DNA of 64,000 bases from Acidimicrobiaceae bacterium. Its GTDB lineage: Bacteria; Actinomycetota; Acidimicrobiia; Acidimicrobiales; RAAP-2. The DNA lies in the NCBI GenBank assembly GCA_003169675.1, contig PNAT01000179.1, positions 3,759 to 67,758 of the forward strand, given 5' to 3'. Of the stretch, positions 5,126-32,341 are shown piece by piece. How positions within the stretch are numbered: position 1 is the stretch's first letter; each line of letters starts with the position of its first letter. A model generated the notes under the pieces. The model made no database searches and was not told where the DNA came from. It worked only from the letters and a program-made list of their open reading frames with translations. The position numbers and the translations under genes were made by a program.

Positions 5126-6084
5126 CGCGCACAGCGGGCAAGGTGCTCGCCCTCCTCGTCGCAGCATCTGCGTTCACCCTGTGTGCCCTGGCGGGCGGGG
5201 CATCGGCTGTGGCCACTAACAATCCGTCGCCGCTCGCCACGGGCAGCATCCCCGCCAACCTGTTGGTCCTGTTTCAACAAGCGGCAGCAGCCAGTCCGTG
5301 CGGGGTCCCATGGACCCTGCTCGCCGCAGTGGCGAAGACCGAATCGTCCCTCGATCCGACTGCGGTCTCGGGTGCGGGGGCCGAGGGCATGTTCCAGTTC
5401 GAGCCGGCGACCTTCGCCGAGTACGCCAAGCCGGCCCCGTCCGGTGGTGCGATCCCGCCCACCGCGTTCGACCCGACGGACGCCGCCTATGCCGCCGGCC
5501 GCTACCTGTGCTCACTCGGGGTCGCCCAGAACCCAACCTTGGCGCTGGTGGCCTACAACTGCGGCAACGCCGGAGCGGCGTGCCAGGCCGCGTCGGCCGG
5601 CTACGCCGAGCAGGTACTGGCCACCGCAGCCCGCTACACCGCTGCGGGTGCGGGAGTGCCCAGCGGTGTGCAAGCGGCCGTCGTTTCCTACGCCGAGTCG
5701 CAGATCGGAACCCCTTACGTCTACGGCGGCGATACCCCCGGGACCGGGTTCGACTGCTCCGGACTGGTCGTGTGGACCTATGGGCTGGCCGGGGTGGTTG
5801 TACCCCGGGTGGCCAACGACCAGTGGCACGACGAGCCCCATGTGGCGCTCGATGAACTGGTCCCGGGCGATCTCGTGTTCTTCGGCACCGGCAGCGCTTC
5901 TGGTGACACGGCTTCTGGTGACAGCGTCGCGGATCACGTCGGTATCTACATCGGGGACAGCGCCATGGTCGATGCCCCCCACACCGGTGCCGATGTCCGT
6001 GTCGACACCTTTACCACTGTGGCCGGGGCCCCATGGGGCAGCGGCGAAGTGCTGCTGGGCGGTGCTGATCCGGTGGCCTCGTGA
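5122..6084 (+). CDS. Secreted bifunctional cell-wall hydrolase: lytic transglycosylase (SLT-like) plus NlpC/P60 (C40) peptidase
   Basis: Signal peptide MTRTAGKVLALLVAASAFTLCALAGGASA. SLT-like AVAKTESSLDP...GAEGMFQF. NlpC/P60 motif YVYGGDTPGTGFDCSGLVVWTY with a later HVGIY. Confidence 0.85.
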   Translation: MTRTAGKVLALLVAASAFTLCALAGGASAVATNNPSPLATGSIPANLLVLFQQAAAASPCGVPWTLLAAVAKTESSLDPTAVSGAGAEGMFQFEPATFAEYAKPAPSGGAIPPTAFDPTDAAYAAGRYLCSLGVAQNPTLALVAYNCGNAGAACQAASAGYAEQVLATAARYTAAGAGVPSGVQAAVVSYAESQIGTPYVYGGDTPGTGFDCSGLVVWTYGLAGVVVPRVANDQWHDEPHVALDELVPGDLVFFGTGSASGDTASGDSVADHVGIYIGDSAMVDAPHTGADVRVDTFTTVAGAPWGSGEVLLGGADPVAS

Positions 6085-12600: not shown

Positions 12601-13125
12601 AACACCGCGGACCAGATTGGGGACGACGACATGGGTATGAAGCTGGGGGTCGCCGGCCCGGCTGGTGCGGTGCCGGAACGCCGCGCCAACGAAGCCCTCG
12701 GCCTCGATGAGCTGCTTCCCGTCACGTCCTCTGCGGGCGAAACAGGCTTCGGAAGATAGGCGGTCAAGCACGGCTCCGACTGCCTGGTCGTGGGCGGCGG
12801 AGAACGTGCCCCGTACATCTTCCGATCCCAACGCCCAGAGCAGGGAGACACCCTTCGGAGCGGAGAACGTCAGGTCGAAACCGGGACGTCGTTCTGGCCG
12901 GAGTTGCACGCCGAGGCTGGCACCATCGGCCGCTGTGCCCGCGAGCAGGTTCCTGAGGGCATCGGCGTCGATCTGACCGACGAGGCCAAAGCGTTCGGCA
13001 GTGGCGCCGATCCACTGGCCTGGTGCCTCGCCCCGGCCGAGGTAGTAGTCGTCGACGTTGTTGGCAACCTTGTCGAGGTAGTAGTTGGCGCCACCGGTGG
13101 TGCCAAGCCGTCCTATGGACAGCAT
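9697..13125 (-). CDS. MOBF-family conjugative relaxase-helicase (TrwC/TraA-like)
   Basis: N-terminus MLSIGRL...ANYYLDKV...YY, followed by a His triad RHRTSRAGDPQLHTHVVVPN. The central helicase has P-loop GQAGTGKTT and VIVLDEASMV. Total length 1142 aa. Confidence 0.9.
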   Translation of the reverse strand: MLSIGRLGTTGGANYYLDKVANNVDDYYLGRGEAPGQWIGATAERFGLVGQIDADALRNLLAGTAADGASLGVQLRPERRPGFDLTFSAPKGVSLLWALGSEDVRGTFSAAHDQAVGAVLDRLSSEACFARRGRDGKQLIEAEGFVGAAFRHRTSRAGDPQLHTHVVVPNLVRGVDGQWSAPDGRHLYLWQKAAGTLYQSALRAELAPLGLTWDIRRNGLSELRDIPKTVLRAFSKRRVDIESAMNSRGATSSRAAETAALATRERKPAGGIAGDVLRDGWAEQLSAIELPDGSGGTRPVTVDDLNAALGLEAVAPHGPEEVEAVFRVLAGENGVSLDDWEIDEQRLSDTGAPGTRALPVTLLGSSFSRRDAISAVARAFDVTPDEAGALTARFLEREGVVRVIADPGAGTEHIRTRSGHVVPATSGDRRYTTTELLAAEQRIIGSAIARKGEGTGRVAPTTVEHVLGLHTHLDGEQADGVRALLTSGNGYDLVIGQAGTGKTTLLGAARIGWEEAGFQVIGTAVAARTAADLEAGTGIPSSSLTQLLADLRESGGLTNRHVIVLDEASMVGSRPLDQLRSYVDAAGAKLVLLGDNRQLSSIDAGGALRSLSMELGTHVVTLTTNRRQAGADQQWERDALVALRHGNVTPAVHAYVEHGRVTITSTIDQARQRIVEDWWSVHRTHTTAILAVRRSDVAALNDMVRARRQVAGELGTEIRIGAKAFSVGDRVIFEKNQRVQSVDLANDRHRPELVRLRNGTFGTVVALTDTNDAVTREGDVRRTQGVVAGIEEEARSEPTGSLVVQLDDGRRAVLPRSYAEASTSLGYALTVFRSQGITVDHTFGLGGDSLFQEAGYTQLSRGRLSNNLYVASPENPRWEIGHHADDLAQRDALESLVDALSQNKEQTMARDRLPTWPTVSPDDFASAYREHASLGQWIADHAPVDSFSGHLEGSGAERARAGAEDDVTNLITAQRRDAWVDAHQAEIERWSQLDRDLSRHEYRLGQAAAYSQPEHTGVLGPLPERISGVERWQSAAGAIEAYRSRWNITTVDALGPEPLDPEQGAHWKRAVDAIGSAGFAAPGGPGRASDEAWLSSLWDRVHALGAARSDAARDVTSMPDAPQFAWRRDVDSGRDLGGGFGL

Positions 13126-14283: not shown

Positions 14284-14679
14284 TCAGAAGGTCCCGACCT
14301 CCTGGGTCTCGGCCTCACCCGACTGCCGCTGGGTCCGCTGGACGTCGGCGGTGGCGAAGCGGAGGCTGGGACCGATCTCGTCGGCCGTGATCTCGACCTT
14401 GGATCGGTGCTCACCCTCCTCGTTCTCCCAGCTGCGCTGCTCGATGCGGCCGGTGACCACGACCCGCATGCCCTTGGAGAGGCTGAGGGCCACGTTCTCC
14501 GCCAGTTCCCGCCAGCAGATGACGTCGAAGAAGGACGTCGCCTCCTGCCATTCCTGGGTCGAGCGGTCCTGCCAGCGCCGGTTGACGGCGACACCGAGCT
14601 GGGCCGTAGCCTGGCCCTCCTTGGTGTAGCGGATCTCCGGCTCCCGGGTCAGGTTGCCTGTGATGGTGACAGTGTTCAT
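14284..14679 (-). CDS. ssb: Single-stranded DNA-binding protein
   Basis: MNTVTITGNLTREPEIRYTKEGQATAQLGVAVNRRW...FFDVICWRELAENV...GRIEQRSWE is a typical OB-fold SSB. It has an acidic tail ending in F. Confidence 0.9.
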   Translation of the reverse strand: MNTVTITGNLTREPEIRYTKEGQATAQLGVAVNRRWQDRSTQEWQEATSFFDVICWRELAENVALSLSKGMRVVVTGRIEQRSWENEEGEHRSKVEITADEIGPSLRFATADVQRTQRQSGEAETQEVGTF

Positions 14680-15491
14680 GTTGTGGTTCCTTTCGTTTGT
14701 GGTGCTTACGGGCACGACACGCGAACCGGGAAGACGAGGGGGCAACGGTTGCCCGGAGGGTCGGCCGGAAAGTTGCGGCGGGACCGAAGGTCAGTGAGTG
14801 CAGCGAACGCCGCCGGCCAGTTTCCGAGACGCCGTTGCGGCCGAGGCGACGGGGCGCAAGATGGGACCGAGAGCACCGCCACACACGTCAGGAGGACCAC
14901 GACGCACCGCTCACCACCCATCTGGTGCCACCGAGGGGACCTTCTCGCTATATCGGGGCTCAGGTCGGCCGTGCCGGACCTACGCAACTGCCGGCCGGAC
15001 GACCAGGACAAGGATTGAGCCTCGCGGTATCCCGGGATGGTCGAACATCGCCGGGCAGGAGACCACAGTGTGTTCGGGTGCGGTGGATCTCAGACAGTGG
15101 CTGCCACAGGCGCTCAAATGCGCACCTGGAGGCCGGTGTAGCCGGACCGGCGATTCGAGACACGACTATCGTGGAGGCTGTCGCAGGGCACGGATCCGCC
15201 TCCGTCGCCCGCGATTGCCCACCCTCGCGGTGGACGGCCTTCGGGCCCCGGCTGCCCTTTCCCGCCGAGGGCGGAGCCAGATCACCTTGCCCTAGCGCGA
15301 CCGGAATCTACCGGCACGAAAGACCAAGCGGATGACACTCATGTGAGGGACTCCGGGTGGTGGATCCGAGTACCTGAGCGACTCCGTGCCACAGCTTCGC
15401 CCGAACAAAAGACCGCAGCTCGTGGTTGATCCGTGGATGGATGACCCGCGGCCCGGACTGACGTGCTGCGCATCCCTTAGCCTTGACTGCA

Positions 15492-16265
15492 ATGTCTAAA
15501 GCGGAAACTTTCCTCGACCGCTCAATGATCGCCCTCGTGAGCCGGATCTCCGGTCGGACAGCGGTGGCACTGGCACTGATCCTGTACGTAGGGGGCGGCC
15601 TCATTTTGCCGCTCACGCTCGGCTGGCCGACCTTGTTCCTGGTCGAGGCGAATCTCGTAGGCGCCGTTCTCGCCGCGGCTGTGTGCATCGGTTGGCTCAT
15701 GGTTCGAGTCGAGGCGGGCAACCGACGCCATCTGGTTGAGTGGACGACGGACCTCCGTCTCCTCGACCCAGAGGAATTCGAATGGCTTGTTGGCGAGGTA
15801 CTTCGGCGAGAGGGATGGACGGTGCGAGAAACCGGGAGCCAAGACAGTCCTGACGGGAACATCGACCTCGATCTGACGCGTCACGGCCAGAGATCGATCG
15901 TTCAGTGCAAGCGGTGGACTGCCATGGTCGTTGGCGTCGATGAGATCCGACGATTTCTCGGCACCCTGATGCGCGAGCACCTCCCGGCAAATGCGGGTAT
16001 TTTCGTCACCCTTTCAAGCTTCACGGAGCAAGCCCGAAAGGAGGCACAGGAGGCCGGCATCACCCTTGTTGACAGCAGCAGCCTGTACTCCCACATCGAG
16101 AAGGTCCGTCACGCAGAGCCGTGCCCGGAGTGCGGGAAGCCGATGATCCTGGATCGCTCGAAGCACGGTTGGTGGCTTCGATGTGCAGCGGGCCGCTGCT
16201 CGGGAAAACGTGATCTCAGCCGCGAACCTGGCCGCGCCATCGAATTGTTGATGCAGTCAGATTGA
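15492..16265 (+). CDS. Membrane-anchored Mrr-like restriction endonuclease with C-terminal C4 zinc finger
   Basis: N-terminal TM helices. Mrr_cat-like FEWLVGEVLRREGW...DGNIDLDL...IVQCKRW. C-terminal CPECGKPM...WLRCAAGRCSGK resembles a topoisomerase-type zinc ribbon. Confidence 0.7.
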   Translation: MSKAETFLDRSMIALVSRISGRTAVALALILYVGGGLILPLTLGWPTLFLVEANLVGAVLAAAVCIGWLMVRVEAGNRRHLVEWTTDLRLLDPEEFEWLVGEVLRREGWTVRETGSQDSPDGNIDLDLTRHGQRSIVQCKRWTAMVVGVDEIRRFLGTLMREHLPANAGIFVTLSSFTEQARKEAQEAGITLVDSSSLYSHIEKVRHAEPCPECGKPMILDRSKHGWWLRCAAGRCSGKRDLSREPGRAIELLMQSD

Positions 16266-16366: not shown

Positions 16367-18829
16367 TCACAGAGCAGCCCTGACGTTCTCGAGTGCTGAC
16401 TTCATTTCCATGGCCGTCTGGAATCGAGTAGTGCGCTCGGGAGCGCAGGCCCGAAGAAGGAACTCGGCGAGTGGTGCGCTCAAGTGCTTGCGGAACTGCC
16501 TCGGGTCACGAGGCTCCACATCCGGCATGGGTCTGGCCTGGGTGTAGGGGTGCTGACCGTCGCACAACATCTCGTACAGGGTCACACCTACCGCGAAAAG
16601 ATCGGTGGAAACATCCCAACGGGTGAGGTCTGCATCCGGAGGCTGGTAAGGGGGCGTGCCCGAGTTCGTGCGCACGGGGTCTCCGACCCGAGACGCGATG
16701 TTGAAGTCCAGCAACTTGGCCCCTGACCTCGTCAGCACGATGTTTTGAGGCTTGATGTCACGGTGGACAAGTGCGTCCTCGCTCATCGCCATCAGTTCGT
16801 CGTACTCATCTGGCGAGATCTCGCCCTGACGTCGCTTCTGATCCAGGGCATCGAGTCGTTCGCTGTCCGGGTGGATTGCGGTCAACGCGCTCAACACGTC
16901 GAGGGCGACGTCGATTGCCTCACGATCCCGTAGCTTCTTCTTCCCCGCGGTGTAGTCCGAAACGAGCTCACCGTCGATGTACTCGAGAATGAGATACCAC
17001 TCGCCGAGGTCGGTTTGGTCAGCCCAGATTACTTTCACGACGTTGGGGTGATGGACCTTCCTGAGGGCACCGATCTCCCGGCGCACAGCGTCGTAGCCGG
17101 CGGCGTTGTCAAACAGTTTCAGGGCTCGTTCTTCACCTTCGACCGTGTCCCGCACCCGGTACACCTTCGAGAATCCACCTGATCCGAGCAGCTCCTTGAC
17201 CTCGAAACGCCCACCGATCGTGTCACCCGCGACATAGTCACGAGCCGGCGTCTTCGAAATGACGTCTGAGGGATCTGGGGCTGGAAGGACGTCACGCTCC
17301 GAAAGAGGCCCATCCGGCTGTGGCGATTGAACTTCGTTCCGTATCCGCATCTTGTGCTTCACGGACTCTTCGCAGTAGACGACAGTCTCTGGACCGTCGC
17401 CGATTCGATACGAAAGGTCGACCTTCCCGAACTCTGCGGCACCAATGAAGGCCTGGGCCTCTTTCACCCGCCGGCGCATCTCGAGCGAGAGCGACGCAGC
17501 CCAAGCGAGGAATTCGTCCGGCACATCCATGCTGGAGTCGGGAAAGAGCAGTTTGAGGAGGCCATCCATCGTGTTATTGACCGCTTTTCGGTCGCGACCG
17601 CTCAACGCACTCCCCCACTCGAGGCGGCCCTGCAGGACGTCGAGTCGAGACGTTCGACGCAGCTGGGTCCAGACCTCTGCCAGGTAGTCGCTGACGAAGC
17701 CGAAATGCTCAGTAAAGTAAGACGGGTCAAGCTTGGGGACGTCCCAGCCTGGAAAATACGCGTGAATGCGGTCCATGAAAGCAGTGTCGTCCTGCATCTC
17801 TTTGGGGAGAGGTGATAGCAGGTGCCCGACCCGGAGCTGTTGCTCCACATCGACGTCGAAGTTTCCAACCATGACGATTCCACCTTCAGCTCGGATCGAC
17901 TCGCGTCCCCGGCTGAACTCACCTGACTCCATGTAGCCCTTGAGGATGTTGACGCCCTCCTTCTGATCGAACGAGACACCAGAGACCTCGTCGAAGCAGA
18001 TGACGTCGTACTGCGCTACCAGGCCACGCCGACCACTGTTCATGTTGACGAACATGTTGGCGATTGTCGCCTTGCCGCCAGAAACTAGGTGGGCATAGGG
18101 AGAGACTTGCTGAAAAAGGTGCGACTTGCCCGTGCCGCGAGGACCCAGTTCGACGGCGTTGTAATTCCTCACGACGAACGGGATCATTCGCGCGATCAAG
18201 ATGTCCTGTTGGCGGCTGGTCAGCTTGGCCGGCTCGAAGCCGACGCTACGAAGAAGCAATTCCCGCCACTGATCAAGGTTGAACCGCGAGCGGCCCGACA
18301 TGAAGGTGCTAAGCGCATCCCGGGTGGACATCTGAATGGGGCGAATGGCCTCTACCCGGAATGGCTGCCCGCCTTGCTCACTGGCCAACGCGGCGATGTA
18401 CTCCAAGGTGACTTCGGCGTAGAACCCCCCAGTGAGCATCCGCTGATGCTCGTCTACCAGCTCAGAGGAGATGTGAATGTCATTGAGCTGCAGACTGGGT
18501 AACTCCGCCTTGTAGGCGTCACTCTTGGAGTCGAGGCGCGCTTTGAGTAGGTCGATGATCTTGACCCGACCCTTCTCACGGGCCCGGTGTTTGAACAGCT
18601 CCTCCTCCCCGGCCCGAACGGTGCGGTCTTGCATGGATTGCTTGACCATTTCCAAGCCCGCGGCAATTTCATCGGGGTCTGTTGTTGCGCAGTAACGACC
18701 CAGCATGAACTCGCCTACATAGGTAGGCACTGGGTATTGACCACGGAACTGCTGCGCCAGGTCCTTCTTGACCAGGTAGCCGTCGAATGCGGTTGATGCC
18801 AGCGTGTCCAGGGTGTCCAGCTCAGTCAT
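16367..18829 (-). CDS. BrxL-type AAA+ ATPase fused to a Hanks-type Ser/Thr protein kinase domain (no Lon-like domain)
   Basis: Residues 1-~490 are collinear with BrxL as I recall it (FDGYLVKKDLAQQF..VPTYVGEFMLGRYC; Walker A GPRGTGKS at 18122-18145; Walker B VICFDEV; FMDRIHAYFPGWDVPK; SGRDRKAV). Residues ~541-815 carry GSGGFSKVY, ALKLF, HRDIKPQN (16742-16765), DFN and TPPYQPPD. ATGA overlap with pglZ. Confidence 0.8.
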   Translation of the reverse strand: MTELDTLDTLASTAFDGYLVKKDLAQQFRGQYPVPTYVGEFMLGRYCATTDPDEIAAGLEMVKQSMQDRTVRAGEEELFKHRAREKGRVKIIDLLKARLDSKSDAYKAELPSLQLNDIHISSELVDEHQRMLTGGFYAEVTLEYIAALASEQGGQPFRVEAIRPIQMSTRDALSTFMSGRSRFNLDQWRELLLRSVGFEPAKLTSRQQDILIARMIPFVVRNYNAVELGPRGTGKSHLFQQVSPYAHLVSGGKATIANMFVNMNSGRRGLVAQYDVICFDEVSGVSFDQKEGVNILKGYMESGEFSRGRESIRAEGGIVMVGNFDVDVEQQLRVGHLLSPLPKEMQDDTAFMDRIHAYFPGWDVPKLDPSYFTEHFGFVSDYLAEVWTQLRRTSRLDVLQGRLEWGSALSGRDRKAVNNTMDGLLKLLFPDSSMDVPDEFLAWAASLSLEMRRRVKEAQAFIGAAEFGKVDLSYRIGDGPETVVYCEESVKHKMRIRNEVQSPQPDGPLSERDVLPAPDPSDVISKTPARDYVAGDTIGGRFEVKELLGSGGFSKVYRVRDTVEGEERALKLFDNAAGYDAVRREIGALRKVHHPNVVKVIWADQTDLGEWYLILEYIDGELVSDYTAGKKKLRDREAIDVALDVLSALTAIHPDSERLDALDQKRRQGEISPDEYDELMAMSEDALVHRDIKPQNIVLTRSGAKLLDFNIASRVGDPVRTNSGTPPYQPPDADLTRWDVSTDLFAVGVTLYEMLCDGQHPYTQARPMPDVEPRDPRQFRKHLSAPLAEFLLRACAPERTTRFQTAMEMKSALENVRAAL

Positions 18830-21144
18830 CGATTCTGCCCAATGATCGTCTCGCGCTGCAAGAGAAGCGAGCCGTCACTCCCGACCACGACGAGCTGCGC
18901 CGGCTCACCTTCGAGGTCATCGTCCGCCACGAGGAGGATCACCTTCCCGTGGCCACTCGTGACACGTCCCATCTCGGCGATGCTGGATCCCGCCTCCCCG
19001 GCGGTGGTGCGAAGGTCGACTGTCGCCCCCATGGGAAGACCCTCGAACTCGACCACCAGGGTGAGACCCCGCCACCTCACCTTGGTGATGACCGCTCCCT
19101 CGGTTGGACTGGCCCCCCGGCTGACAGAGATTCGAGGGACAACGCACTCCTGTGGGCTGACGCCCCCGTGCTCGTACTCCTGATTGGCCTTGAAGCACGA
19201 GATTCCGGGGGCGATGGCGATGCGCACGTCAGGATCCCAGTGCCATGGGACGGTGGGCACCTTGAGGTCGGCTACGCCAGGCTTGATCCTCGCACAGCGC
19301 CCTTTCACGACCTCCGCAACAGAAGAGGGCAGATCCTCGTTCTTTGGCAAGCCCCCAGGGAGCAGGAGCCACCCGTGGTCAGTAACGATGGTGACCTTGG
19401 CCCAACCTGCCTCGAGCAACTCGCCGATTCGGGTGGCGATCCTGCCCACTTCGTCATCGATCTCATAGGCGATGCGGATCCCGAGATCATGCGCCCGGTG
19501 ATCAATTTCCCCAGTCTCCGTCCAGGCAGTTCCATCCGGATCACCATCATTATTCGAGTCGAGCACCTGGATGCCGGCGGTACCCATGAGCGCTCTCAAG
19601 ACCTGGACCTGGGCAGAAGGGCCTTGCGGGGCCCGCCGAGCGTCGAGTTCTTCCCCCGCGGCCAGCTGATTCTGATCGATTGGCACCAGAGCCGGCTTCG
19701 ACGTCTGTGTCACCGTAGGCAGTGCCGCCAACCCGGCATCCAAGTTGACATCCAGCCCGGCCCCATTGAGGCGCTCCATCAGAATGTTGGCCACATCGAA
19801 TCGCAGGCCATCAATAAAGACGACGACTTCGCCAACTGTCGTCTTCGGTGCCGGCGTAGCGGCATACGTGCCGGCGTTCGCAGCAGGCCCGACCGCCTCC
19901 TGCAGGACCTTTGCTGCCTGTTCCATCCACGGTCGGTACACGGCATTGACGGCAGCTCCTACGGCCAGCAGGTCCGCTTTGCTTGTCACCTCGTTCAGCG
20001 TGGCCAGCACCGCCCGATCGGCCCGCCATCCAGACCCGACATACCAATCCTTGATTGCCTCCACCGAAGTGCCTGCCGGCCCCACCGAAGTGGTCCGGGC
20101 GGTCTCCGTCAGGTGTTCCAGGGCAAGGGCCAGTGGCGTCCTGCCGAGGGTCGCCCAGACGTAACTTCGACGCTCTCTGTGTGTCTCCTCGAACTTCAGT
20201 ATCTGTTCGCGCGCCTGCTGTGCCGCACTACCCGAGAGGGCCAAGAGATCAGCTCGAAGGCGATCTTCAGCCGTTGCGGCAAGGCCAGGCCACCCTCCGG
20301 GCCTGCTCGGGATGAGCTCGGCAGGTTGCGCCTGGTTCAGGCGATCAGGAATACCCGGATAGTCCGCAGGATTCTCACAAAACCGTCGCCAGACCTGCGT
20401 CCAGGTGCCCATTGCCTCACCAAGAAGGCGAGCTCCGGCGATCTCACCATCGCTGGCGGGGTTGAATCCGAAATCTTGCTGGCAAAGGCTGACGAAAGCG
20501 GTCCATGCGGCGCTGTCCAGCCCGTTGCGTGTGGCGACAGGATCGTCAAGCCAGTTCAAAAGCGATCGGACCGGGTCGGGGCTCAACATCCCGTTGAGGA
20601 AAGCCGCATCAATGTATTTGGATTCGAGCTGAGCGATGGGCCTCTCAATCAGCAACCTCAAGCTGGCAGCCAGGGCGTCGGTGGTCATCTCATCACCTGC
20701 CACGTCGAGTCCAAACCCGACTTCCTTGTTGGAGAGCAATCCCCGAATTGTCCAGTCCTTGCCGTTTGGATGATTGAACCACTGGCATCGGTACTGCAGC
20801 GCGCCTAGGGGCGCGAGATCTGCAGACGCCACGTCGAGGGCGCTGAGCGCACCTCTTGAGATGCCCGGTAAGTAAACGATGGTGCTGCCGCTCGTGGCAC
20901 CTTCGAGTTCCACAGTCCCGGCCATAACGCAACGCAGCCAGTACGATGGTCCCTGGCGTGCTTTGAGATCGAAAACTCCATAGCGCACAATGCGTCGAAT
21001 CCGCTGCAACTCGGAGATTGCTCCTTCCCACTGTCTATCCTCGTCAGGCCAGAGCATTGCGATCGGAGCTTCAAACACATTGGAGTCGAACGTACGAGCC
21101 GAATCCAGTGCTTGGACAATCCGGTCAATCAGCCTATCGCTCAC
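18826..21144 (-). CDS. pglZ: BREX alkaline-phosphatase-superfamily protein PglZ
   Basis: VVFIDGLRFDVANILMERL is the PglZ-type metal-site motif. Size and position fit PglZ. The GTG start at 21144 overlaps the pglX stop as GTGA; the track ORF start at 21246 is rejected. Confidence 0.85.
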   Translation of the reverse strand: MSDRLIDRIVQALDSARTFDSNVFEAPIAMLWPDEDRQWEGAISELQRIRRIVRYGVFDLKARQGPSYWLRCVMAGTVELEGATSGSTIVYLPGISRGALSALDVASADLAPLGALQYRCQWFNHPNGKDWTIRGLLSNKEVGFGLDVAGDEMTTDALAASLRLLIERPIAQLESKYIDAAFLNGMLSPDPVRSLLNWLDDPVATRNGLDSAAWTAFVSLCQQDFGFNPASDGEIAGARLLGEAMGTWTQVWRRFCENPADYPGIPDRLNQAQPAELIPSRPGGWPGLAATAEDRLRADLLALSGSAAQQAREQILKFEETHRERRSYVWATLGRTPLALALEHLTETARTTSVGPAGTSVEAIKDWYVGSGWRADRAVLATLNEVTSKADLLAVGAAVNAVYRPWMEQAAKVLQEAVGPAANAGTYAATPAPKTTVGEVVVFIDGLRFDVANILMERLNGAGLDVNLDAGLAALPTVTQTSKPALVPIDQNQLAAGEELDARRAPQGPSAQVQVLRALMGTAGIQVLDSNNDGDPDGTAWTETGEIDHRAHDLGIRIAYEIDDEVGRIATRIGELLEAGWAKVTIVTDHGWLLLPGGLPKNEDLPSSVAEVVKGRCARIKPGVADLKVPTVPWHWDPDVRIAIAPGISCFKANQEYEHGGVSPQECVVPRISVSRGASPTEGAVITKVRWRGLTLVVEFEGLPMGATVDLRTTAGEAGSSIAEMGRVTSGHGKVILLVADDDLEGEPAQLVVVGSDGSLLLQRETIIGQNR

Positions 21145-24100
21145 GTCGTCTGCCTCTTCCGGGCAGCAATCTTTTCGGCCAGCGAATAGTGGAGATGGTT
21201 GTGCCGTTCGGTGCCGTCCAGGTTCTTGCCACGGTCCTTGTCCCACTTGACGTTGAATTTGGTTCGCAACACGCCGGCTTCGACGAAAGGGCGCACATTC
21301 AGGCGGACTCCATCATTGAGGTCCGGCTCCCAACCAATCGGTTGTTGTTCCAACGACTTCCAGCGCGCGTAGATGTCGTAGGGAGATTCACCCTCGATGA
21401 CTAGTTCCAATCGACGTTGCAGATCTTGGGCGGCGGCCAGACGTTCCTCAGCGCCGGTGACGTCGTCGCGCGCACCAGCCGACTGCCGCTCAATCCAGTC
21501 GCCGAGGTATGTGTAAGTCAGTCGTTCGAGATTGGCTCGATTAAGTCGGTGATAATTCACGAGGGCCGAGAAGCCGTCTTTGCGACCATCCCAGATCTGC
21601 CAGACAAATGGCCGGTTCTTAAAAAGTTGGCAGTGTGCCTTGAAGAAGTCATCCCGAAGCCAAGACTCACAGTCGCTCTTCGTGGTGCCCGACGACGCAA
21701 GGAGTTCGACCAATCGGGACGCCGCCCAAGAGTCACCGAAAGTTCGTGCCAGCATCTCTTGCAGACGATCAGAGGCGGGTGGCTCACCGAGTACGGATGG
21801 CAAGCAGACGATGCCATCTTCGTCTGCCATGGCGTCGAGATCGGCGGAGCCTTTCTGCTCGGGCCAGCAGTAACCGAGCAGCCGTCCGATCGCAACCTGC
21901 AATGGCTCGGTGGCCATCTCGGGACATCCATCGAACAGCCACTGGGTTGGATCATCCGACTTGGGCTGGGGTAATCCATCTGGGAACTGGTCGGCGGCCA
22001 CTTGGCGCCAGTGTCCGACATCGAATGGAACCTTCAGGAGAGTCTTCGGCGTCAATTTGATCGATTGGTCGATCTGTCGTACCAGTTTTGAATGCTCTCC
22101 AGACGCCATGAACTGCCACATCGCAGGAAGAAGACTCTGATCATTCGGGACTACTGCGCAGCAGTTCATGTCATAGCGGTCGCCAAGGTAAACGGTTGGC
22201 AACAAATCGCCCATGAGACTCACAGCAATACCTGGCTTTCCCCAGGAGGGCTTTCCGCTTCGCCAGTTCTGAGCCGCATGGTTCAAGTGACTAACGCTTT
22301 CGGCGAATGCAGCCAACTCACCTTGCTCGCGTTCCCACCGGATAACTTTTGACCTGCCACCGTAAAGAACTACAGCCTCAACTGAGCTTTGCTGTCTCTC
22401 CCAGACGTCTCCCACATTTGATATTTCCCAAAACTGTCGATCAAATCTCGGGGAGTCTCCAGTGCGGATTCCCTCCAGTGCCTCAGCAAAGGAACTCAGC
22501 ATCAACAGGCCCTGCGTCTCGTATCCAAGCAGTATTCGGGCGTCTGGGTTCAAGAGCTGTCGGGCCTGGTCCCATTGAATCAAATAGGCAGTACGGCATT
22601 CCAACGCTTTAAGTTCAGGCGATGACGCATCCTCCACATCAAGGCCGAATGACAACTCGCCATTGGGGGCGTCGTCAGCCGTCGCAATTACCAATGCTGG
22701 GTTCGCCCGAAGCGTCGTAGTGAACGCGCCCAAGCCGAGTCTGACTAGAAATCGCCAACCGCATCTCTCTAGTGTCCGCTTCCGCATTGGTTGATATCGA
22801 ACCAAGAACAACCATTCGGCTGGGCCGACGATGGCCACAGAGGTCGAGCTTTTGCCAGATATCCACCACCTGTCGAGGAATACCGTGGCTAGGTCGTGGC
22901 GAGCTTGGAAGTGTGACTGTTCGATGTAGGTCTTGAGCTTGTCCACGTGTCGATTGAAACTAAGAAAAGGGACATTTGTCACTACCAACGAATAGTGGCG
23001 GCTCAAGTAGTCGGCGGCTCGTGCGATGCCTGCTGCATCTGCTCCAAGAACGGCCGTTGCTGGGTCATCACTTTCAGCGGTGAGAGCTTTGTTCAACAGT
23101 GGTGCGACATCATCCCAATCGACGTCATCGAAGGACTTTTGAAGGCCAGTGGCATCGGTGAGTTCGGTCACTTTCTTGGGATCAATAAGGCTTCCGAGAG
23201 TGTCCGCATCTCGGAACAGAATGTGCAGCCGGACAAGTGCTTTTTCGAGTTGGGGGTCACCCCCGGCTAGCGCCGTCCACTCCCCTACTGGCGCCTTGAC
23301 CGGGATGCCCGAGCAGGCCACGTTCGGGACTGGAAGCTCTCGCCATCCACCCCCGGCCTTCCAGGCCGTCAATGCTACGGCAAACATTGCGATCTGCACA
23401 CACCGAGGATCGAGTTCAAGCCCAAACAGATTGTCCCGAAGCACAGCGTCTTGGGAGGACACCGCGGCCAGATCTTCCTCCTCCGAGCGCATGCGCCAAA
23501 GCATCCCAAATGCCTCAACCAAGAAGTGGCCTGACCCACAACAAGGATCCATCACCTTGACGTCCGCTACTCGATCAGGCCAGCCATCGAAGCTACCCGC
23601 CGCGGGTGCGCCAGCGTCGTCGAATCGTAGGAACTCCCACTCCTTCAAAAGAGGACTGTCCGGATGGCGACAAGCCCACCAGGCACCTAGTGAGTTCTCC
23701 AGTAGGAAGCGAACCATGTAGTTCTCGGTAAACAGTTGGGTCACCGGTCCGAGGTCTGCACCACCGATCTTGCGCTCAGAGGCGTTGACCTCGTCCTTCT
23801 TCTCCTTCTGCCAGAACTGGTAGACCCAGCCGAGGGCATCGTCGGCCAAGAACATCTGAGCTGGCAGCCCACTGACAATCTTCTCCAGCTCGAGCCGTCC
23901 CTCTGATGCAAGTCGGAGCCGCACGCAAGGATCGTCGAGTCGGAAGATCCCGGGCAGGATCTCCGCGGCGAATCGACCCGCCACGGCCCATCCATCGGGC
24001 TCTTTGAGACCACCCGCCAGCTCCTCACACTCGGCAAGTGTGACGGGAGCGCGATACTCCGGGTGAATCAGGAGACCATTCTCCGCCAGGAAGCGGGCGA

Positions 24101-24359
24101 ACAAGAGTCGGTGCCATTGCTCGTAGGCGCATTCTGATACGAGGAGAGCAATCGAATCTCCTTCGTCGCCGAGTTGCCGGCTCTTGGCCCGCAACCCCCG
24201 GCGGATGGTCCGCTCGGATTCGCTCAGATGGGACGGGGCGGTCTTCGACGCAACGCTGAATGCACCTATTGCAGCACGGCAGGCTTGCTCAGCGGCGCGA
24301 CGACCCCGTACGCAGGCCTCCTCCAGTTCCTTCCGCAATCCTGATGCCAGAACGCTCAC
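21141..24359 (-). CDS. pglX: BREX N6-adenine DNA methyltransferase PglX
   Basis: SAM motif I is VMDPCCGSGHFLVEAF (23520-23555). Motif IV is variant: VVTNVPFLS (NVPF at 22965-22976). Length 1072 aa, with a GAAGGAG SD before the GTG start. Confidence 0.85.
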   Translation of the reverse strand: MSVLASGLRKELEEACVRGRRAAEQACRAAIGAFSVASKTAPSHLSESERTIRRGLRAKSRQLGDEGDSIALLVSECAYEQWHRLLFARFLAENGLLIHPEYRAPVTLAECEELAGGLKEPDGWAVAGRFAAEILPGIFRLDDPCVRLRLASEGRLELEKIVSGLPAQMFLADDALGWVYQFWQKEKKDEVNASERKIGGADLGPVTQLFTENYMVRFLLENSLGAWWACRHPDSPLLKEWEFLRFDDAGAPAAGSFDGWPDRVADVKVMDPCCGSGHFLVEAFGMLWRMRSEEEDLAAVSSQDAVLRDNLFGLELDPRCVQIAMFAVALTAWKAGGGWRELPVPNVACSGIPVKAPVGEWTALAGGDPQLEKALVRLHILFRDADTLGSLIDPKKVTELTDATGLQKSFDDVDWDDVAPLLNKALTAESDDPATAVLGADAAGIARAADYLSRHYSLVVTNVPFLSFNRHVDKLKTYIEQSHFQARHDLATVFLDRWWISGKSSTSVAIVGPAEWLFLVRYQPMRKRTLERCGWRFLVRLGLGAFTTTLRANPALVIATADDAPNGELSFGLDVEDASSPELKALECRTAYLIQWDQARQLLNPDARILLGYETQGLLMLSSFAEALEGIRTGDSPRFDRQFWEISNVGDVWERQQSSVEAVVLYGGRSKVIRWEREQGELAAFAESVSHLNHAAQNWRSGKPSWGKPGIAVSLMGDLLPTVYLGDRYDMNCCAVVPNDQSLLPAMWQFMASGEHSKLVRQIDQSIKLTPKTLLKVPFDVGHWRQVAADQFPDGLPQPKSDDPTQWLFDGCPEMATEPLQVAIGRLLGYCWPEQKGSADLDAMADEDGIVCLPSVLGEPPASDRLQEMLARTFGDSWAASRLVELLASSGTTKSDCESWLRDDFFKAHCQLFKNRPFVWQIWDGRKDGFSALVNYHRLNRANLERLTYTYLGDWIERQSAGARDDVTGAEERLAAAQDLQRRLELVIEGESPYDIYARWKSLEQQPIGWEPDLNDGVRLNVRPFVEAGVLRTKFNVKWDKDRGKNLDGTERHNHLHYSLAEKIAARKRQTT

Positions 24360-24374
24360 GCTGATTGCTCCTTC

Positions 24375-27300
24375 TCAGATGATGATGGTTTCGCCAGCAT
24401 TGACATGCTGAATGAGCTGATCGCGGAACGCGGAGACGTAGACATCCACCTCTTCCTCCGTCTTGATTGTGGCACTCGCTGGTTTCACGGTCACACTCTT
24501 CGGTTCGAGTTTCAAAGATGCGGCGGCCCGTGCGGCGGATACTTTTGCCGGCAGAGCCTGCCCGCGCTCCTTCAAACTTGCGAGTGGAGTCGAGTCAAGC
24601 GCCCTCAGGAGTTCCTCATCCGTATTGACCAGAAGGCCTTCGATCGGGATCAGTGCCACGTCTTTCAGCAGTTCGCCACGGTCGTCCGCGTCAAGCTGCT
24701 TCCACTCTGCGGATTCCTCCAGGCTGGCCAATTCTCCTTTGTATGCAGCCCCCAGAGCTGTCACCTCCGAATTCACTGCCGCCCGCAAAATGGAACATAG
24801 CGATGTAACGAGAGGCGCGACCGGATCAGGTTCGCTCAGCAGGAGGCGATTTGCCAGAATGGCGTCGCGTTGGACAATGACGGGTCCAGATCCTTCGAGA
24901 TTCTCCGCATGTTTGATGAGCCGATTGACCCGATCCCATTCGGTCTCCCGCTCCGCGCGTTGGTCTACTTCAACCGTCCACACACTTATGTCCTGTCGAA
25001 GTTGTTCTGCGGCCTTCGCAACTTCGCGGAACTGCTGGTTTCCCGCCAGGCCCATCAGGGATAGGAGGCGTTCAGTATCGGGGGGTGGTGGGAGTGGAGC
25101 AGGGCCGCCGGCGCGGTTGGCTAGACCGACAAGATGTTGCAAAAGTCCGCTGATGGCGGCACCTTCCTGGCCTGACACGTACTGGACACTTGCGTCTCCC
25201 AGGAGGCCCCTTACCGCGAGGCGTTCAGGAGTAGAAGGAGGAGCATCCTCCTTATAGAAAGTGCTTTTGCCGATTTGGGTGGGCGGCAATTCCTTTGCGC
25301 CGGCCACTGGCAGTCCTTCTCGGTCGGCTCGGACGTTGCCATTGGACAGGAGTGCAATCAGGGCTGCATCGACGGCATCCTTTGGCCATCCATATGGGGC
25401 AGCCATCAGCTGACCTTGGAGCTCGCTACCTTTCGTCCCCGCACCCGACGTCCGGGCAAGTACCTCCTTGCACACCGGGTTTTCCGGCACTTCGCTATTC
25501 CAGCCGACCGAGGCGAGCGCATCAGGAGCGCCATCTCGGGCCTTGTCGATTACCTTGCTCCAATTGACGTTGTCGCCTGGTCCGAACTTGGGAAACAAGC
25601 GTGCGAGCGAACTACGTCCCGCCGACTCCACTCCGTCTCGCAATGAGAACGTTGTCGGCTCGTTGCCCCCTCCTTGAAACACCCGAGCCTTCATAACTAC
25701 CGTCCCAAACAGTGAACCGAGTTTTGTTTGGCCTTCCGAAGCGCGCGACTGCATCCCCTGCTTGGCCTGACGACCTTCATCGGTCTGAGGCTCGGGCCGC
25801 TGGTTGATGGTGTCGGTTGCTGCGGCGTAGTTGGCCAAGGCATCGCGAATTCCTTCGGCGTCCACCCTCGGCAGAAGTACAAAAACTATTGGACTGTCGA
25901 CACCAGCCTGCGATGCAGCTTCCTTAGCCTTCGCCTCGGTCACGTTCCACTCATCACGAATCCACACCGGGATTGACGAGCCATCGACAGTCGGTTCAAC
26001 GTCACCCCAAATGCGATCAAGCTTTCTCGGCGTCTTACTCTCGCCGTGCAGAAGCTTGATGCCCGAGAGCTCATCATCAACGGTCTTGAGGAGCCATTCA
26101 TTGCGCAACTGGGACATCCGCGTCGCATCATCACGGATCGATGCTCGTCGCTGATTGAACTCCTTGGTCCACTCGGCACCTTCTTCTGTCTGAAGGCGGT
26201 ACTCATCACCAAGCTTCATGACTCGACCCTGCTCCACGAGTTCCTCGAGGACTCTCGGGACGTCCTTGCGGAGCAAGGACCCATCAGCCGAGAGATCCTC
26301 CACGAGGAGGTCAGCGATGTTGGCCGCTGTTGCACGGACGCCGGTATCTCCCACTCCTTCGTGCGGGAGCTGAGAAATGAGGAACACGAGCGCGCATGCC
26401 CGAGATTTGAGCTCCCCATCAGACGTTCCGTCCTGAAGTCCCCTAATCAGTTCGTCGATCTCCTTGAGGAGGACGCCGCTCTGCATCATGCTGGCCGACT
26501 CGGACCGGAATACGAAGTCGCCCCCGATGACTGTTCCCAGCGGCTTGTTGGCCACACTGCGAGCAGCTTCGTGAACGATTTTCAACTGTGTCCGCAGGGC
26601 GCCAGCCTTGCCGCCGGCATTGTCGATCGCCCGCAATGCTCGCTCCCAAAAGCGGCGACGTGTAGGCAGTAGCGGGTAGTCAGCCACCTGTGTCGCCTTG
26701 TCGGCCGCCCGGGCCTCGAGCTTGGTACCCGCGAGCTCTCGGTCGATCTCACCACTGACCTTGTTCAGTGCTTCAGTGATCTCAGGGATCGAATCCGGCT
26801 TCTTGCGCAAAACGACCTTGCGGACCACCGTCTCGACATCAGTGTCGGACAGTGCGACCGTCACCGAGAACCGATCGATGAGTTTTTGCAGGGTCGGATT
26901 GGCCATCAGGGCCGCTTGGCCGGTAGCTACGATCAGCACCTGACTACCGAACTTCGATGAACATGCCTCGGCGAGTCCCTGAACTTCCAACGCCTTCGCA
27001 TTGTCGTCGTTGATGTACTGCTGCATCTCATCGAGAACAACTAGGACCAGCGGGAGCTTGCCATTAGTCGAGCTCTCCAGCTTCAGGACTTCTTCAAATG
27101 TGTCGAGCATGTCTCTCTCGCTGATGTCATCGGCCATCGGGAACTGTGCTTGCAGTGCGGTACTCACCGCGGCCGCGGTATCGCCGTAGGTGACCCCAGC
27201 TTCGATCAATGCTTGAGCCAGTGCACTCGATACGTAGAGGTTGCGAAGCTCGAAGGCAAAGTCACGACCCGCTCCTTCGACGGCTGCCTTCACCTGGTCG

Positions 27301-27842
27301 AACTTGTTCTCGCTCTTCAGACGGATGGCGAGCTTGGCAGGCGCGTACTGCTGCGGCAGGCCGGCCGCCTCGAAGATGATCGTCAGGAAGGCGAGGCGCA
27401 CCGATCCCGATACACCTGCCCCGAGGGTCCCCGCTGCTGACCAGAGTCCCCCGACCCGCTTGGCTGCGTTTGACAGCTCGACGAGTTCGGCCTTGATGGC
27501 GTCAGGTAGATCGGCGAGACCACGTGCCGACACCCCCGAGGGCAGTTGGTCGTCACGCCACAGATACTCAAGTACCCGCATCAGGTGGGATTTGCCGCTG
27601 CCGAAGAACCCGCTGACCCAGACTGCCGGCTGCTGGGCTTGACTCAGGTGGCTCAGGAACTGGTCGAGGATCCTTTGGAGACCACGCTCGTACTCCCCCT
27701 CGCACACAAAGCTCCGCAGCTCCCACTCCAGAGTTGCCCATTCCGAGGCGCTCTCGGGTGTCTCAACCTTGGCCACACCAAGGTTGGGGATGTCCACCTC
27801 TGTTGGATCAAACGCAAATACGTCACGATTCGTGATGGTCAC
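24375..27842 (-). CDS. brxC: BREX P-loop ATPase BrxC/PglY
   Basis: VSGFFGSGKSHLMRVL Walker A near the N-terminus and LVVLDEMQQY Walker B. Length 1155 aa, positioned between brxB and pglX. Confidence 0.85.
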   Translation of the reverse strand: MTITNRDVFAFDPTEVDIPNLGVAKVETPESASEWATLEWELRSFVCEGEYERGLQRILDQFLSHLSQAQQPAVWVSGFFGSGKSHLMRVLEYLWRDDQLPSGVSARGLADLPDAIKAELVELSNAAKRVGGLWSAAGTLGAGVSGSVRLAFLTIIFEAAGLPQQYAPAKLAIRLKSENKFDQVKAAVEGAGRDFAFELRNLYVSSALAQALIEAGVTYGDTAAAVSTALQAQFPMADDISERDMLDTFEEVLKLESSTNGKLPLVLVVLDEMQQYINDDNAKALEVQGLAEACSSKFGSQVLIVATGQAALMANPTLQKLIDRFSVTVALSDTDVETVVRKVVLRKKPDSIPEITEALNKVSGEIDRELAGTKLEARAADKATQVADYPLLPTRRRFWERALRAIDNAGGKAGALRTQLKIVHEAARSVANKPLGTVIGGDFVFRSESASMMQSGVLLKEIDELIRGLQDGTSDGELKSRACALVFLISQLPHEGVGDTGVRATAANIADLLVEDLSADGSLLRKDVPRVLEELVEQGRVMKLGDEYRLQTEEGAEWTKEFNQRRASIRDDATRMSQLRNEWLLKTVDDELSGIKLLHGESKTPRKLDRIWGDVEPTVDGSSIPVWIRDEWNVTEAKAKEAASQAGVDSPIVFVLLPRVDAEGIRDALANYAAATDTINQRPEPQTDEGRQAKQGMQSRASEGQTKLGSLFGTVVMKARVFQGGGNEPTTFSLRDGVESAGRSSLARLFPKFGPGDNVNWSKVIDKARDGAPDALASVGWNSEVPENPVCKEVLARTSGAGTKGSELQGQLMAAPYGWPKDAVDAALIALLSNGNVRADREGLPVAGAKELPPTQIGKSTFYKEDAPPSTPERLAVRGLLGDASVQYVSGQEGAAISGLLQHLVGLANRAGGPAPLPPPPDTERLLSLMGLAGNQQFREVAKAAEQLRQDISVWTVEVDQRAERETEWDRVNRLIKHAENLEGSGPVIVQRDAILANRLLLSEPDPVAPLVTSLCSILRAAVNSEVTALGAAYKGELASLEESAEWKQLDADDRGELLKDVALIPIEGLLVNTDEELLRALDSTPLASLKERGQALPAKVSAARAAASLKLEPKSVTVKPASATIKTEEEVDVYVSAFRDQLIQHVNAGETIII

Positions 27843-27847
27843 GAGTT

Positions 27848-28402
27848 CTAGCCCCTCTCCGCGGTGATAGGTGTTGCGAGGTAGTTCCAGCCGTCTTTGG
27901 CTCCTAGAAGGCGATAGTTGTTGCCTTCGATTTCGCCGGGAAAGAACACCAGCAATCGTCCGGCCACACGATCCTGTACGCGTTCGATGAGAGCCGACAC
28001 CCGCACGTGGTCGCCGAGTCCATAGAGGCTGGCGGCCCCGACGATTCCGATGATGGTCTTCTCGGATGTCCTCGCCTCGATCTCACTTCCAACATCTTTT
28101 GCCAGCTGGTCAAAGAACCCGAGAAGCTCGGGCTGCATCAGTTTCGGATTAGCGAAATACGCGTCGCGGTACTCGTGTGAGGCCATCCACATCTCGAACT
28201 CGCTGCTGATGTCGATCTTGCTCCACTCGTAACCGGCGGCTTTGGTTGCGTTCTCGAATTCGGGCAGGTGGAGGCGCAGCCGGCGCTCATCTTCCGGCGC
28301 ATACACGGCCATCCAGACTCGTTGTGCCGGCGCCAGCATGTTGGGCCACGGGAGCTTCACGAATCTCCCATAGTTAGCGATCAAGTCATCAATGCGACTC
28401 AC
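27848..28402 (-). CDS. brxB: BREX protein BrxB (DUF1788-like)
   Basis: RVWMAVYAPEDERRLRLHL...YRDAYFANP...GRLLVFFPGEIEGNNYRLLGAKDGWNYLATPI matches the DUF1788 pattern I recall. Confidence 0.8.
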   Translation of the reverse strand: MSRIDDLIANYGRFVKLPWPNMLAPAQRVWMAVYAPEDERRLRLHLPEFENATKAAGYEWSKIDISSEFEMWMASHEYRDAYFANPKLMQPELLGFFDQLAKDVGSEIEARTSEKTIIGIVGAASLYGLGDHVRVSALIERVQDRVAGRLLVFFPGEIEGNNYRLLGAKDGWNYLATPITAERG

Positions 28403-29193
28403 AGCAGTTGACCTTCCATCGGACGAAGTAGTTCAGTGAAATTGACTTCTGTTACGCCTCCGCTGTTCTTGAATTCGATCAAGGAACGCTGCGAGGCAAC
28501 TGAAGCCAGATCAATCAGGTGCGACTTCGGCTGATCGAGGACCCGCGCCCAAAAGGTGTCGAAAAGGGCGGCGCCCCGGATCCCTTCGAGATGGCCAAGG
28601 AGAAGCGCATACGCCGTCGCCGATGCAGTGCAGGTCGGGCGACGTCGGGACTTCATGCCGTTGGACATTCCTTCGAGATGGCCGGTCTGCTCCCAGGACG
28701 AGAAAGTGTTCCGGCCGATCTTGGCAACTGTCGACGCGCTGTACGCCGTCGGGAAGAACTTCTCTACTGCCCCCGCCAGATCAGCACTGATGATCTCATC
28801 CCCCGGGCTGCTCTCAAAGATCACCGTCGCCGAAGCCCGAAACACAGCATCTCGAGCAAGCGCGCACAATCCCGCCAGGAGCGGCTGCCCCGCGACGTCA
28901 TCGGTCCACAGGTCTCGGATACTCCGGAAGAGGATGGAATCAGGCCGCAGAAGGTAGAGCTCACGAAGGTAGCGGAACGTTCGAGACCTCGATCCAGCGG
29001 TCTCCTTGCCGAGCACGTTGTCACCGACCACGGCCCGTTCGTATTCGACTGTGGTGGCGCTCGAGTCCACCACATTGAAGAGGTGGGTCAGCGCGGGAAT
29101 GATGATCGTGTGACTGGTGTTGGTCCCCCCACTGCGATCGAACGGGACGATCTCTTGATCAATCAAGACCGAGCCTCCCGGAGCTGAAACCAC
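28399..29193 (-). CDS. brxA: BREX protein BrxA-like (DUF1819-like)
   Basis: Its position is 5' of brxB. The segments NVLGKETAGSRSRTFRYLRELYLL, LLAGLCALARDAVFRASATVIF and STVAKIGRNTFSSWEQTGHL parallel BrxA helices as I recall them. The GTG start is uncertain and overlaps the upstream HTH gene. Confidence 0.6.
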   Translation of the reverse strand: MVSAPGGSVLIDQEIVPFDRSGGTNTSHTIIIPALTHLFNVVDSSATTVEYERAVVGDNVLGKETAGSRSRTFRYLRELYLLRPDSILFRSIRDLWTDDVAGQPLLAGLCALARDAVFRASATVIFESSPGDEIISADLAGAVEKFFPTAYSASTVAKIGRNTFSSWEQTGHLEGMSNGMKSRRRPTCTASATAYALLLGHLEGIRGAALFDTFWARVLDQPKSHLIDLASVASQRSLIEFKNSGGVTEVNFTELLRPMEGQLL

Positions 29194-30407: not shown

Positions 30408-30690
30408 GGTGGTTCCTCCTGTCAAGCGGCGGGCGTTTCCCGCCGATGGAGCAGAAGGGTCTGCCGGGGACCCCGCGACGGTCGAGGGTTTGCCGGCGCA
30501 GCCGGTGGCGAGAACCGGAGCGACCATCGGGAGCGGCGGCTCGCAAGCCCCCTCGACGGCCGACGGGGTGGCAGCACACTGCGAGAACCAGGCGGAAAAC
30601 GATCCTGTGGGAACGTCTGGCTGGAGTCGTTTGGCCTCGTGTCTCTGGCGGGCGTACAAGCCCGCGATCAGGATGAAGACGAGCGAAGCG

Positions 30691-32187: not shown

Positions 32188-32341
32188 CCAACCAGCTCGG
32201 TTGGGGTTGTCGAGGCGAACTCGGGCACGTCCAACCCGCACGGTCTGCCCGAAGTGCAAGTCTCCGTACTGGGACATGGCACGGCAGATGCCAAAGGGGT
32301 CCAGTAGGCCCCCAACGGGTACGATTTTGAAGTAACAAGCG

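Follow-up and report, generated by a model that had tools for sequence, protein, structure and literature searches.

What becomes of a BrxL protein when its C-terminal domain is a protein kinase? This question is raised by a stretch of 64,000 nucleotides from an Acidimicrobiaceae bacterium (GenBank assembly GCA_003169675.1, contig PNAT01000179.1, positions 3,759 to 67,758 of the forward strand; "the window" below means this whole stretch), in which a bacteriophage exclusion (BREX) operon closes with a single gene for a protein that is BrxL in its first half and a Hanks-type Ser/Thr kinase in its second. Restriction in E. coli and Acinetobacter depends on BrxL, yet the Lon-like domain of this protein is catalytically dead; for methylation, type 1 BrxL is characteristically dispensable. 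The fusion had been pointed out in a reading of the letters alone (the sequence-only reading), and we followed it up with profile searches, structure modelling and the comparison of related proteins and loci. We find that the brxL-kinase fusion is a large, already sequenced actinobacterial family, neither rare nor unique to the window.

The brxL-kinase gene occupies 16367..18829 on the minus strand and encodes 820 aa plus a stop, an assignment drawn from the open reading frame (ORF) list, the translation and Pfam, PADLOC and NCBIfam profiles. The frame begins with ATG and has zero internal stops, and its start codon shares the letters ATGA with the stop codon of the preceding pglZ gene (...cgATGActgag...). 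Translation and sequence agree with the sequence-only reading, which had described an uninterrupted 820-aa ORF joined to pglZ in this way; its coordinates were also right, but it had omitted the strand. All the motifs it had quoted were found where it had placed them: FDGYLVKKDL (residues 15-24), VPTYVGEFMLGRYC (34-47), Walker A GPRGTGKS (229-236), Walker B VICFDEV (276-282), FMDRIHAYFPGWDVPK (351-366) and SGRDRKAV (410-417), followed by the Gly loop GSGGFSKVY (549-557), ALKLF with K571, HRDIKPQN with D691, DFN (708-710) and TPPYQPPD (725-732).

That the first ~490 residues are BrxL-like, as had been read from their layout, is borne out by Pfam, by a solved structure and by Foldseek alike. The BrxL_N domain spans residues 14-144 (18398..18790, minus; PF20442, E-value 5e-44) and superposes on the Acinetobacter BrxL structure 8EMC, and the BrxL AAA+ ATPase, with both Walker motifs, spans residues 157-472 (17414..18361, minus; PF13337, E 2e-121). 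In a sequence search of solved structures, residues 6-479 matched 8EMC with an E-value of 5e-126 and ~43% identity over ~480 aa. We also built an AlphaFold2 model of the monomer from a 20-sequence alignment (mean predicted local distance difference test score, pLDDT, 77), and its first ~483 residues superpose on the BrxL structures 8EMC and 8EMH with a Foldseek E-value of ~1e-48. The ATPase residues G229, P230, T233, G234, K235, D280 and E281 are invariant in the 20-sequence alignment of fusion proteins.

The Lon-like region is missing, as had been claimed: there is no match to Lon_C, homology to Lon-type BrxL proteins ends at about residue 488, and residues 541-820 have a kinase fold. The Pfam scan gave zero Lon_C matches in the 820-aa protein at E<=0.01, and the same scan does pick up Lon_C, if weakly, in the nearest BrxL proteins of the Lon type. 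Two NCBIfam models disagree on the protein: TIGR02688, which covers the N-terminal and ATPase parts only, gives 435.4 against a cutoff of 329.3, and the full-length Lon-related model TIGR02653 gives 500.7, below its cutoff of 628.25. Compared with type 1 BrxL (8EMC and 8EMH), the protein keeps the N-terminal DNA-binding region, an MCM-like AAA+ ATPase with intact Walker A and B motifs and the position of last gene after pglZ, but the Lon-like domain, which in 8EMC spans ~498-679 and mediates tail-to-tail dimerisation, is replaced by a flexible linker and a Ser/Thr kinase.

From about residue 541 the protein is a complete kinase catalytic domain (aa 541-820; 16370..17209, minus), and on this part of the sequence-only reading, too, Pfam Pkinase, the alignment of catalytic residues and fold comparison concur. 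The Pkinase profile (PF00069) matches from residue 542 with an E-value of 1.6e-30 and 106.9 bits against a cutoff of 31.7. When the C-terminal 315 aa are aligned with Stk1 and PknB, K571, E585, the HRD motif (H689-R690-D691), the DFN motif (D708-F709-N710) and GTPPYQPPD (with T725 to D732) fall on VAIK, helix-C, HRD, DFG and APE, and the Gly loop G549-V556 and the catalytic-loop N696 align as well. The C-terminal part of the model matches PknB, Stk1 and PknA with Foldseek E-values of 1e-13 to 6e-16 and target-normalised TM-scores of 0.70-0.82. An insert of ~30 aa (aa 653-686; 16772..16873, minus), modelled as two helices (656-667 and 673-685), separates helix E from the HRD loop that directly follows, and it is this insert that breaks the matches of generic kinase profiles into two stretches.

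The residues K571, E585, H689, R690, D691, K693, N696, D708, F709 and T725 are invariant in 20 aligned fusion proteins, including three divergent lineages, and the activation-loop residues T721 and S723 of this RD kinase are conserved in most family members. The changes of the DFG Gly to Asn and of the APE Glu to Asp run through the whole subfamily and are common to an aligned MAD6-like protein, P0235. With its catalytic residues intact, the kinase domain looks active. It shares the kinase fold and the catalytic residues of PknB and Stk1, but has neither a transmembrane segment nor a PASTA sensor, and differs from them in the two-helix insert, DFN, PPD and the tether to an AAA+ ring.

The two halves meet in a junction at residues ~490-540 (17210..17362, minus), which was delimited by BLASTP against Lon- and Schlafen-type BrxL proteins, HMMER match ranges, alignment and model pLDDT. 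Homology to BrxL ends at ~488-490, and the lead-in to the kinase, with LPAPD at residues 515-519, begins at ~502-514. In the closest BrxL proteins with other tails, 58-64% identity runs through to ~488-490 and then ends abruptly, whether the tail is Lon-like (loci L012 and L014), a Schlafen AlbA_2 domain (P0122) or a PLD-like MIT_C domain (P0127). The model consists of two folded bodies with a disordered join at residues 497-526 (pLDDT <50), and the BrxL and kinase halves are tethered by a flexible linker of ~30-50 residues; this linker is Ser/Thr-rich. Acinetobacter BrxL is protease-sensitive at the equivalent point, near residue 500, and the domain that follows, which lacks the catalytic motif of a protease, mediates tail-to-tail dimerisation of the rings (PMC10164562).

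How widespread the fusion is, and whether it always follows pglZ, were questions that the sequence-only reading had raised; the answers are at least 120 clusters, and an unchanged gene order in each locus with upstream DNA to compare. Each of the 120 best homologues in the list is 779-826 aa long, with 78-100% identity, 95-100% query coverage and an identical Pfam set, and family size is a lower bound, >120 clusters at 90% identity among the matches listed. A 211-aa query across the junction (aa 430-640) returned 38 short fragments and no full-length proteins, and was not used for this count. In a pattern scan that covered one genome per GTDB species, the fusion or a close N-terminal part is present in 13 of the 15 related loci. 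Hosts include the cultured Mycobacterium triplex DSM 44626, another Mycobacterium sp., Gordonia, Acidimicrobiales, Microthrixaceae, Poriferisodalis, Actinomycetales and Solirubrobacterales. Every related locus that includes upstream DNA keeps the order brxA-brxB-brxC-pglX-pglZ-brxL(kinase), with the fusion beginning at the end of pglZ. Across the nine loci L001-L009, the BrxL N-terminal and ATPase parts are mostly 83-90% identical to the window, making them the most conserved of the six BREX proteins, and the kinase is 71-83%, BrxC 66-71%, and PglX and PglZ 55-65% identical. Among 72,556 plasmids searched with tblastn, BrxL genes are numerous, but no record covers >=80% of the fusion, and thus no plasmid-borne copy of it was found there.

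The M. triplex DSM 44626 protein (WP_051641339.1) is a "BREX system Lon protease-like protein BrxL" in RefSeq and a "non-specific serine/threonine protein kinase" in UniRef. The first name misdescribes the family, which has no Lon-like domain. Two of the related loci deserve separate mention. In L010, from a Solirubrobacterales metagenome-assembled genome, the BrxB, BrxC, PglX and PglZ matches are fragmented, possibly by long-read frameshifts or because the operon is decaying. The contig of L011 is labelled Acidobacteriaceae but encodes a BrxL part with 86% identity to that of the actinobacterial family, which suggests misbinning or recent transfer.

The genes that precede the fusion, all on the minus strand, form with it a complete type 1 BREX operon, with all six core genes: brxA (28399..29193; 264 aa as listed, with the profile match from residue 20), brxB (27848..28402; 184 aa), brxC or pglY for a P-loop ATPase (24375..27842; 1155 aa; PADLOC BrxC 1282 bits, NF033441 705.9 bits), pglX or brxX for an N6-adenine DNA methyltransferase (21141..24359; 1072 aa; PADLOC PglX 1288.6 bits, MmeI_Mtase) and pglZ of BREX-1 type B (18826..21144; 772 aa; NF033450 767.8 bits). 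The best PADLOC models for BrxA, BrxB, BrxC, PglX, PglZ and BrxL reach E-values of 2e-71, 4e-64, 0, 0, 8e-243 and 2e-212, and PglZ and BrxC pass their NCBIfam BREX cutoffs. The GTG start of pglZ at 21144 overlaps the pglX stop codon as GTGA, and an identical contig also has pglZ called at 772 aa. The sequence-only reading had taken the locus for a hybrid, in which the last component of a type 1 gene set would have acquired a phosphorylation output; in gene content, however, it is not a hybrid of types 1 and 2: PADLOC and NCBIfam gave zero matches to BrxD or BrxHI among the operon and flanking proteins scanned, and the fusion protein scores 96.5 bits against the PglW cutoff of 990 (NF033442).

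The kinase is one of several domains found behind a BrxL ATPase. A January 2026 BREX survey describes BrxL tails that are an inactive Lon-like domain, an HKD nuclease (1030 of 2913 taxa) or, in type 4, none (PMC12839542). Among the BrxL relatives that we collected, the tails are Lon_C, MIT_C/PLD-like (the published HKD variant), Schlafen AlbA_2 (P0122), Lon_C with HEPN_Swt1 (P0138) and Lon_C with PIN and TRAM (P0146). The BrxL part of those with Lon_C, PLD-like MIT_C and Schlafen tails is 58-64% identical to that of the fusion (58% in P0127 and 62% in P0122), and that of the Lon_C+HEPN and Lon_C+PIN+TRAM proteins ~41-44%. The BrxL section of PMC12839542 does not include the Schlafen AlbA_2, Lon_C+HEPN_Swt1 and Lon_C+PIN+TRAM tails (P0122, P0138, P0146; L024). 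Like the BrxL-HKD proteins of that survey, the fusion has an enzymatic domain where the Lon-like one would begin, at ~490-500, and the type 1 loci around both are otherwise standard, but its predicted output is protein phosphorylation, whereas that of HKD is DNA cleavage.

Kinases occur behind BrxL in other lineages as well. P0123 (789 aa) is 55% identical in its BrxL part and 30% in its kinase, which has no insert, and P0170 (764 aa) and P0147 (773 aa) are 34-38% identical in their BrxL parts and carry canonical DFG/APE kinases with a short C-lobe and no insert. That all BrxL-kinase fusions go back to one event was considered and rejected, given the 30% identity of the P0123 kinase against 55% for its BrxL part and the canonical, insert-free kinases of P0147 and P0170. 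P0123 and P0170 lie in standard type 1 BREX layouts. The P0147 locus (L019, 6830-9151) encodes BrxC, a 1090-aa PglZ, the BrxL-kinase, a NucS_C-like protein and an AAA_23 ATPase, with no PglX between BrxC and PglZ; it looks type-4-like, on an incomplete contig that begins at brxC. As judged from these comparisons, kinases have been fused to BrxL at least three times, all in BREX loci, and the BrxL C-terminus is a swap site for exchangeable domains.

The kinase half has a history of its own. We searched 1.84 billion cluster representatives exhaustively and examined the matches with Pfam and NCBIfam scans, BLASTP and alignment. Residues ~502-820 are, on this evidence, a portable module, composed of an LPxPD lead-in, the kinase, the two-helix insert and DFN. 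The module is found at 57-73% identity, aligned without gaps, on unrelated N-termini: a YxeC-like protein (P0133), a Sll1717-type P-loop ATPase (P0140), a response-regulator receiver (P0142) and tandem kinases (P0135 and P0139). At 46-53% identity it is found in a DEAD-helicase protein with MZB (P0267) and, among proteins built as NERD-kinase-kinase (such as P0235 and P0245), in the second of the two kinases. These NERD proteins exceed the NCBIfam MAD6 cutoff, and their second kinase is 46-49% identical over ~290 aa; in P0235, where the figure is 49% over 290 aa, the insert and the DFNIASR motif are also present.

Two kinds of defence kinase are thereby brought into comparison. Like PglW, the protein puts a Hanks-type kinase into a BREX-family system with PglZ, and the PglW profile spans residues 531-815 in one stretch; unlike PglW, it has no NERD domain, no pseudokinase and none of the PglW C-terminal sensor domains, and it remains far below the PglW cutoff. 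With MAD6-like proteins (NF047741) it shares the kinase at the identity just given, the same 30-aa insert and DFNIASR, but only the kinase module is common to the two: the fusion scores 180.9 bits against a MAD6 cutoff of 460, with only the lead-in and N-lobe aligned, and its surroundings are BREX, not MADS. A direct origin of the kinase from PglW was rejected, since it scores low against the PglW profile but has 57-73% identity to unrelated actinobacterial kinases and 46-49% to MAD6-like ones. The kinase is thus a relative of defence kinases of the PglW/MAD6 class, but was not simply taken over from type 2 BREX.

What might such a protein do? The reading that we favor, to which we give even chances, is that BrxL has exchanged a dead, ring-dimerising Lon-like domain for a kinase that acts as an effector and is activated by ring assembly on DNA. 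Canonical BrxL forms ATP-dependent hexamer or heptamer rings on double-stranded DNA, its C-terminal domain lies at the ring-ring interface, and restriction depends on a Walker B residue (PMC10164562). In the fusion, the N-terminal and AAA+ domains would likewise form an ATP-dependent ring of six or seven subunits on DNA, once unmethylated DNA has been flagged by the BrxC/PglX/PglZ machinery. Such a ring would bring six or seven kinase domains together, allowing mutual phosphorylation of their activation loops (T721, S723), and the activated kinases could then phosphorylate phage or host replication proteins or DNA-bound proteins. The outcome would be a block of phage replication or growth arrest, as proposed for PglW in type 2 BREX/Pgl and for MAD6 in MADS, where the mad6 kinase gene is required for defence (bioRxiv 10.1101/2023.03.30.534895). 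On this view the BrxL C-terminus would hold effector cassettes that can replace one another, the kinase among them; the HKD variant, too, has been read as an added effector (PMC12839542). A broader form of this idea, which we advance more tentatively as a real possibility, is that effectors in general plug into the BrxL C-terminus as into a socket, and that the kinase forms of BrxL, of at least three origins, define subtypes of type 1 BREX, and possibly type-4-like ones, whose restriction is done or gated by phosphorylation from a DNA-loaded AAA+ ring.

Several observations weigh against a kinase effector of this kind. Loss of the Lon-like domain removes the tail-to-tail interface of the ring dimer, so assembly may differ from that of Acinetobacter BrxL, and with DFN for DFG and PPD for APE, kinase activity is not to be taken for granted. 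The closest relatives of the module, P0133 and P0140, have no obvious defence neighbours in the contexts fetched (L022 and L023), which indicates that the module is not defence-specific. Moreover, an effector and a regulatory role of the kinase cannot be told apart by sequence. The kinase could be a regulatory switch that phosphorylates PglX, BrxC, PglZ or its own linker and so toggles methylation and restriction, with PglZ possibly reversing the mark. The place of the gene fits such a switch, as it overlaps pglZ by ATGA and always follows it, and so do the Ser/Thr content of the linker, the coexistence of the kinase PglW with PglZ in type 2 Pgl (PMC12839542) and PglZ itself, a member of the alkaline-phosphatase superfamily that retains, on a motif reading by eye, FIDGLRFD, TQTSKP, TDHGW and EHGG. 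However, in recent work type 1 PglZ is assigned a metal-dependent nuclease activity, not that of a protein phosphatase (PMC12205998), and the other occupants of the slot, PLD/HKD, Schlafen, HEPN and PIN, are effector-type domains and not regulators. We consider the switch unlikely, though a serious competitor.

A purely structural role seems to us quite improbable. In that case the kinase fold would serve as a dimerisation or scaffold module, for instance through PknB-like back-to-back dimers in place of the Lon-like contact between rings, and catalysis would be dispensable. The canonical C-terminal domain is itself a dead enzyme fold that serves ring-ring dimerisation (PMC10164562), and the DFN and PPD motifs are non-canonical; yet the catalytic residues are invariant across the family and in the independently fused kinases, where pseudokinases normally lose some, and in the MAD6-like P0235 the first of the two kinase domains shows only weak similarity to the kinase of the fusion (23% identity over 96 aa). 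The chance that the fusion is an artefact, a short BrxL and a separate kinase gene joined by a frameshift or a misassembly, is negligible. The window does come from metagenome assemblies, and short BrxL proteins of ~450-480 aa exist (TIGR02688, PDLC02505). However, the same ORF is present in the cultured M. triplex DSM 44626, at least 120 clusters have the same length and domains, and 5 contigs of independent origin encode the very same 820-aa protein; together these exclude a frameshift or assembly artefact.

The BREX operon is cargo of an integrative conjugative element (within 1-55916 of the window). The element encodes an SLT and NlpC/P60 hydrolase (4387-6084), a type IV secretion system coupling protein (6260-8038), a TrwC relaxase (9697-13125), a single-stranded DNA-binding protein (14284-14745), a T2SSE-type secretion ATPase (45113-46603) and a tyrosine integrase (54569-55831) that abuts tRNA-Ile (55842-55916). 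The G+C content of the BREX region is 57-61%, against 65-70% in the flanks. Immediately upstream of brxA lies a gene with an ArdC N-terminal (anti-restriction) domain and an M78 peptidase-like part (29505-30824, minus), which places an anti-restriction function beside a restriction-like defence on one mobile element. Past tRNA-Ile the genes look chromosomal and include Pirin and a PknB-like PASTA kinase (62402-63988), whose listed ORF has only the C-terminal part of the kinase domain.

Other genes of the element touch on defence or on its structure. Convergent with brxL-kinase lies a plus-strand gene (15483-16265) for a 260-aa protein with an N-terminal hydrophobic stretch (by eye), Mrr_cat and a C-terminal zinc ribbon, which looks like a type IV-like nuclease beside BREX; it had no tblastn match in the related BREX loci fetched, and a promoter and terminator scan of the convergent brxL-mrr gap found nothing. 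A 318-aa TIR_2 protein (34204-35160, minus) is followed by a 265-aa protein without a Pfam match (33399-34196, minus), and these two genes may make up a further defence module of the element. A tRNA-Gln (32341-32413, minus) lies inside the element near the edge of the lower-GC stretch (~16-36 kb), where it might mark a nested island or be carried by the element.

The sequence-only reading knew of no described BREX subtype with this architecture, and neither the literature searched nor the tail variants in PMC12839542 include one. Our literature search, whose coverage left out most subscription journals, found no description of a BrxL-kinase fusion, and in the text and supplements of PMC12839542 that were examined, kinases come up only for PglW and for Schlafen-histidine-kinase proteins. 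The fusion shows that the list of C-terminal tails published for BrxL (Lon-like, HKD, none) has gaps. The swapping of effector domains is common in defence systems, so the BrxL-kinase is not categorically new; it does tie to BREX a kinase module that it has in common with the MAD6-like proteins of MADS. The mechanism by which type 1 BREX arrests phages and the role of BrxL in it are standing questions of the field, and a natural BrxL with a built-in enzyme, whose output can be traced, makes it possible to ask by experiment when BrxL is activated and what its targets are. If the BrxL C-terminus is indeed an effector socket, type 1 BREX would be linked mechanistically to Pgl/type 2 systems through PglW and to MADS through MAD6, and the substrates of the kinase would be the first direct biochemical readout of BrxL at restriction.

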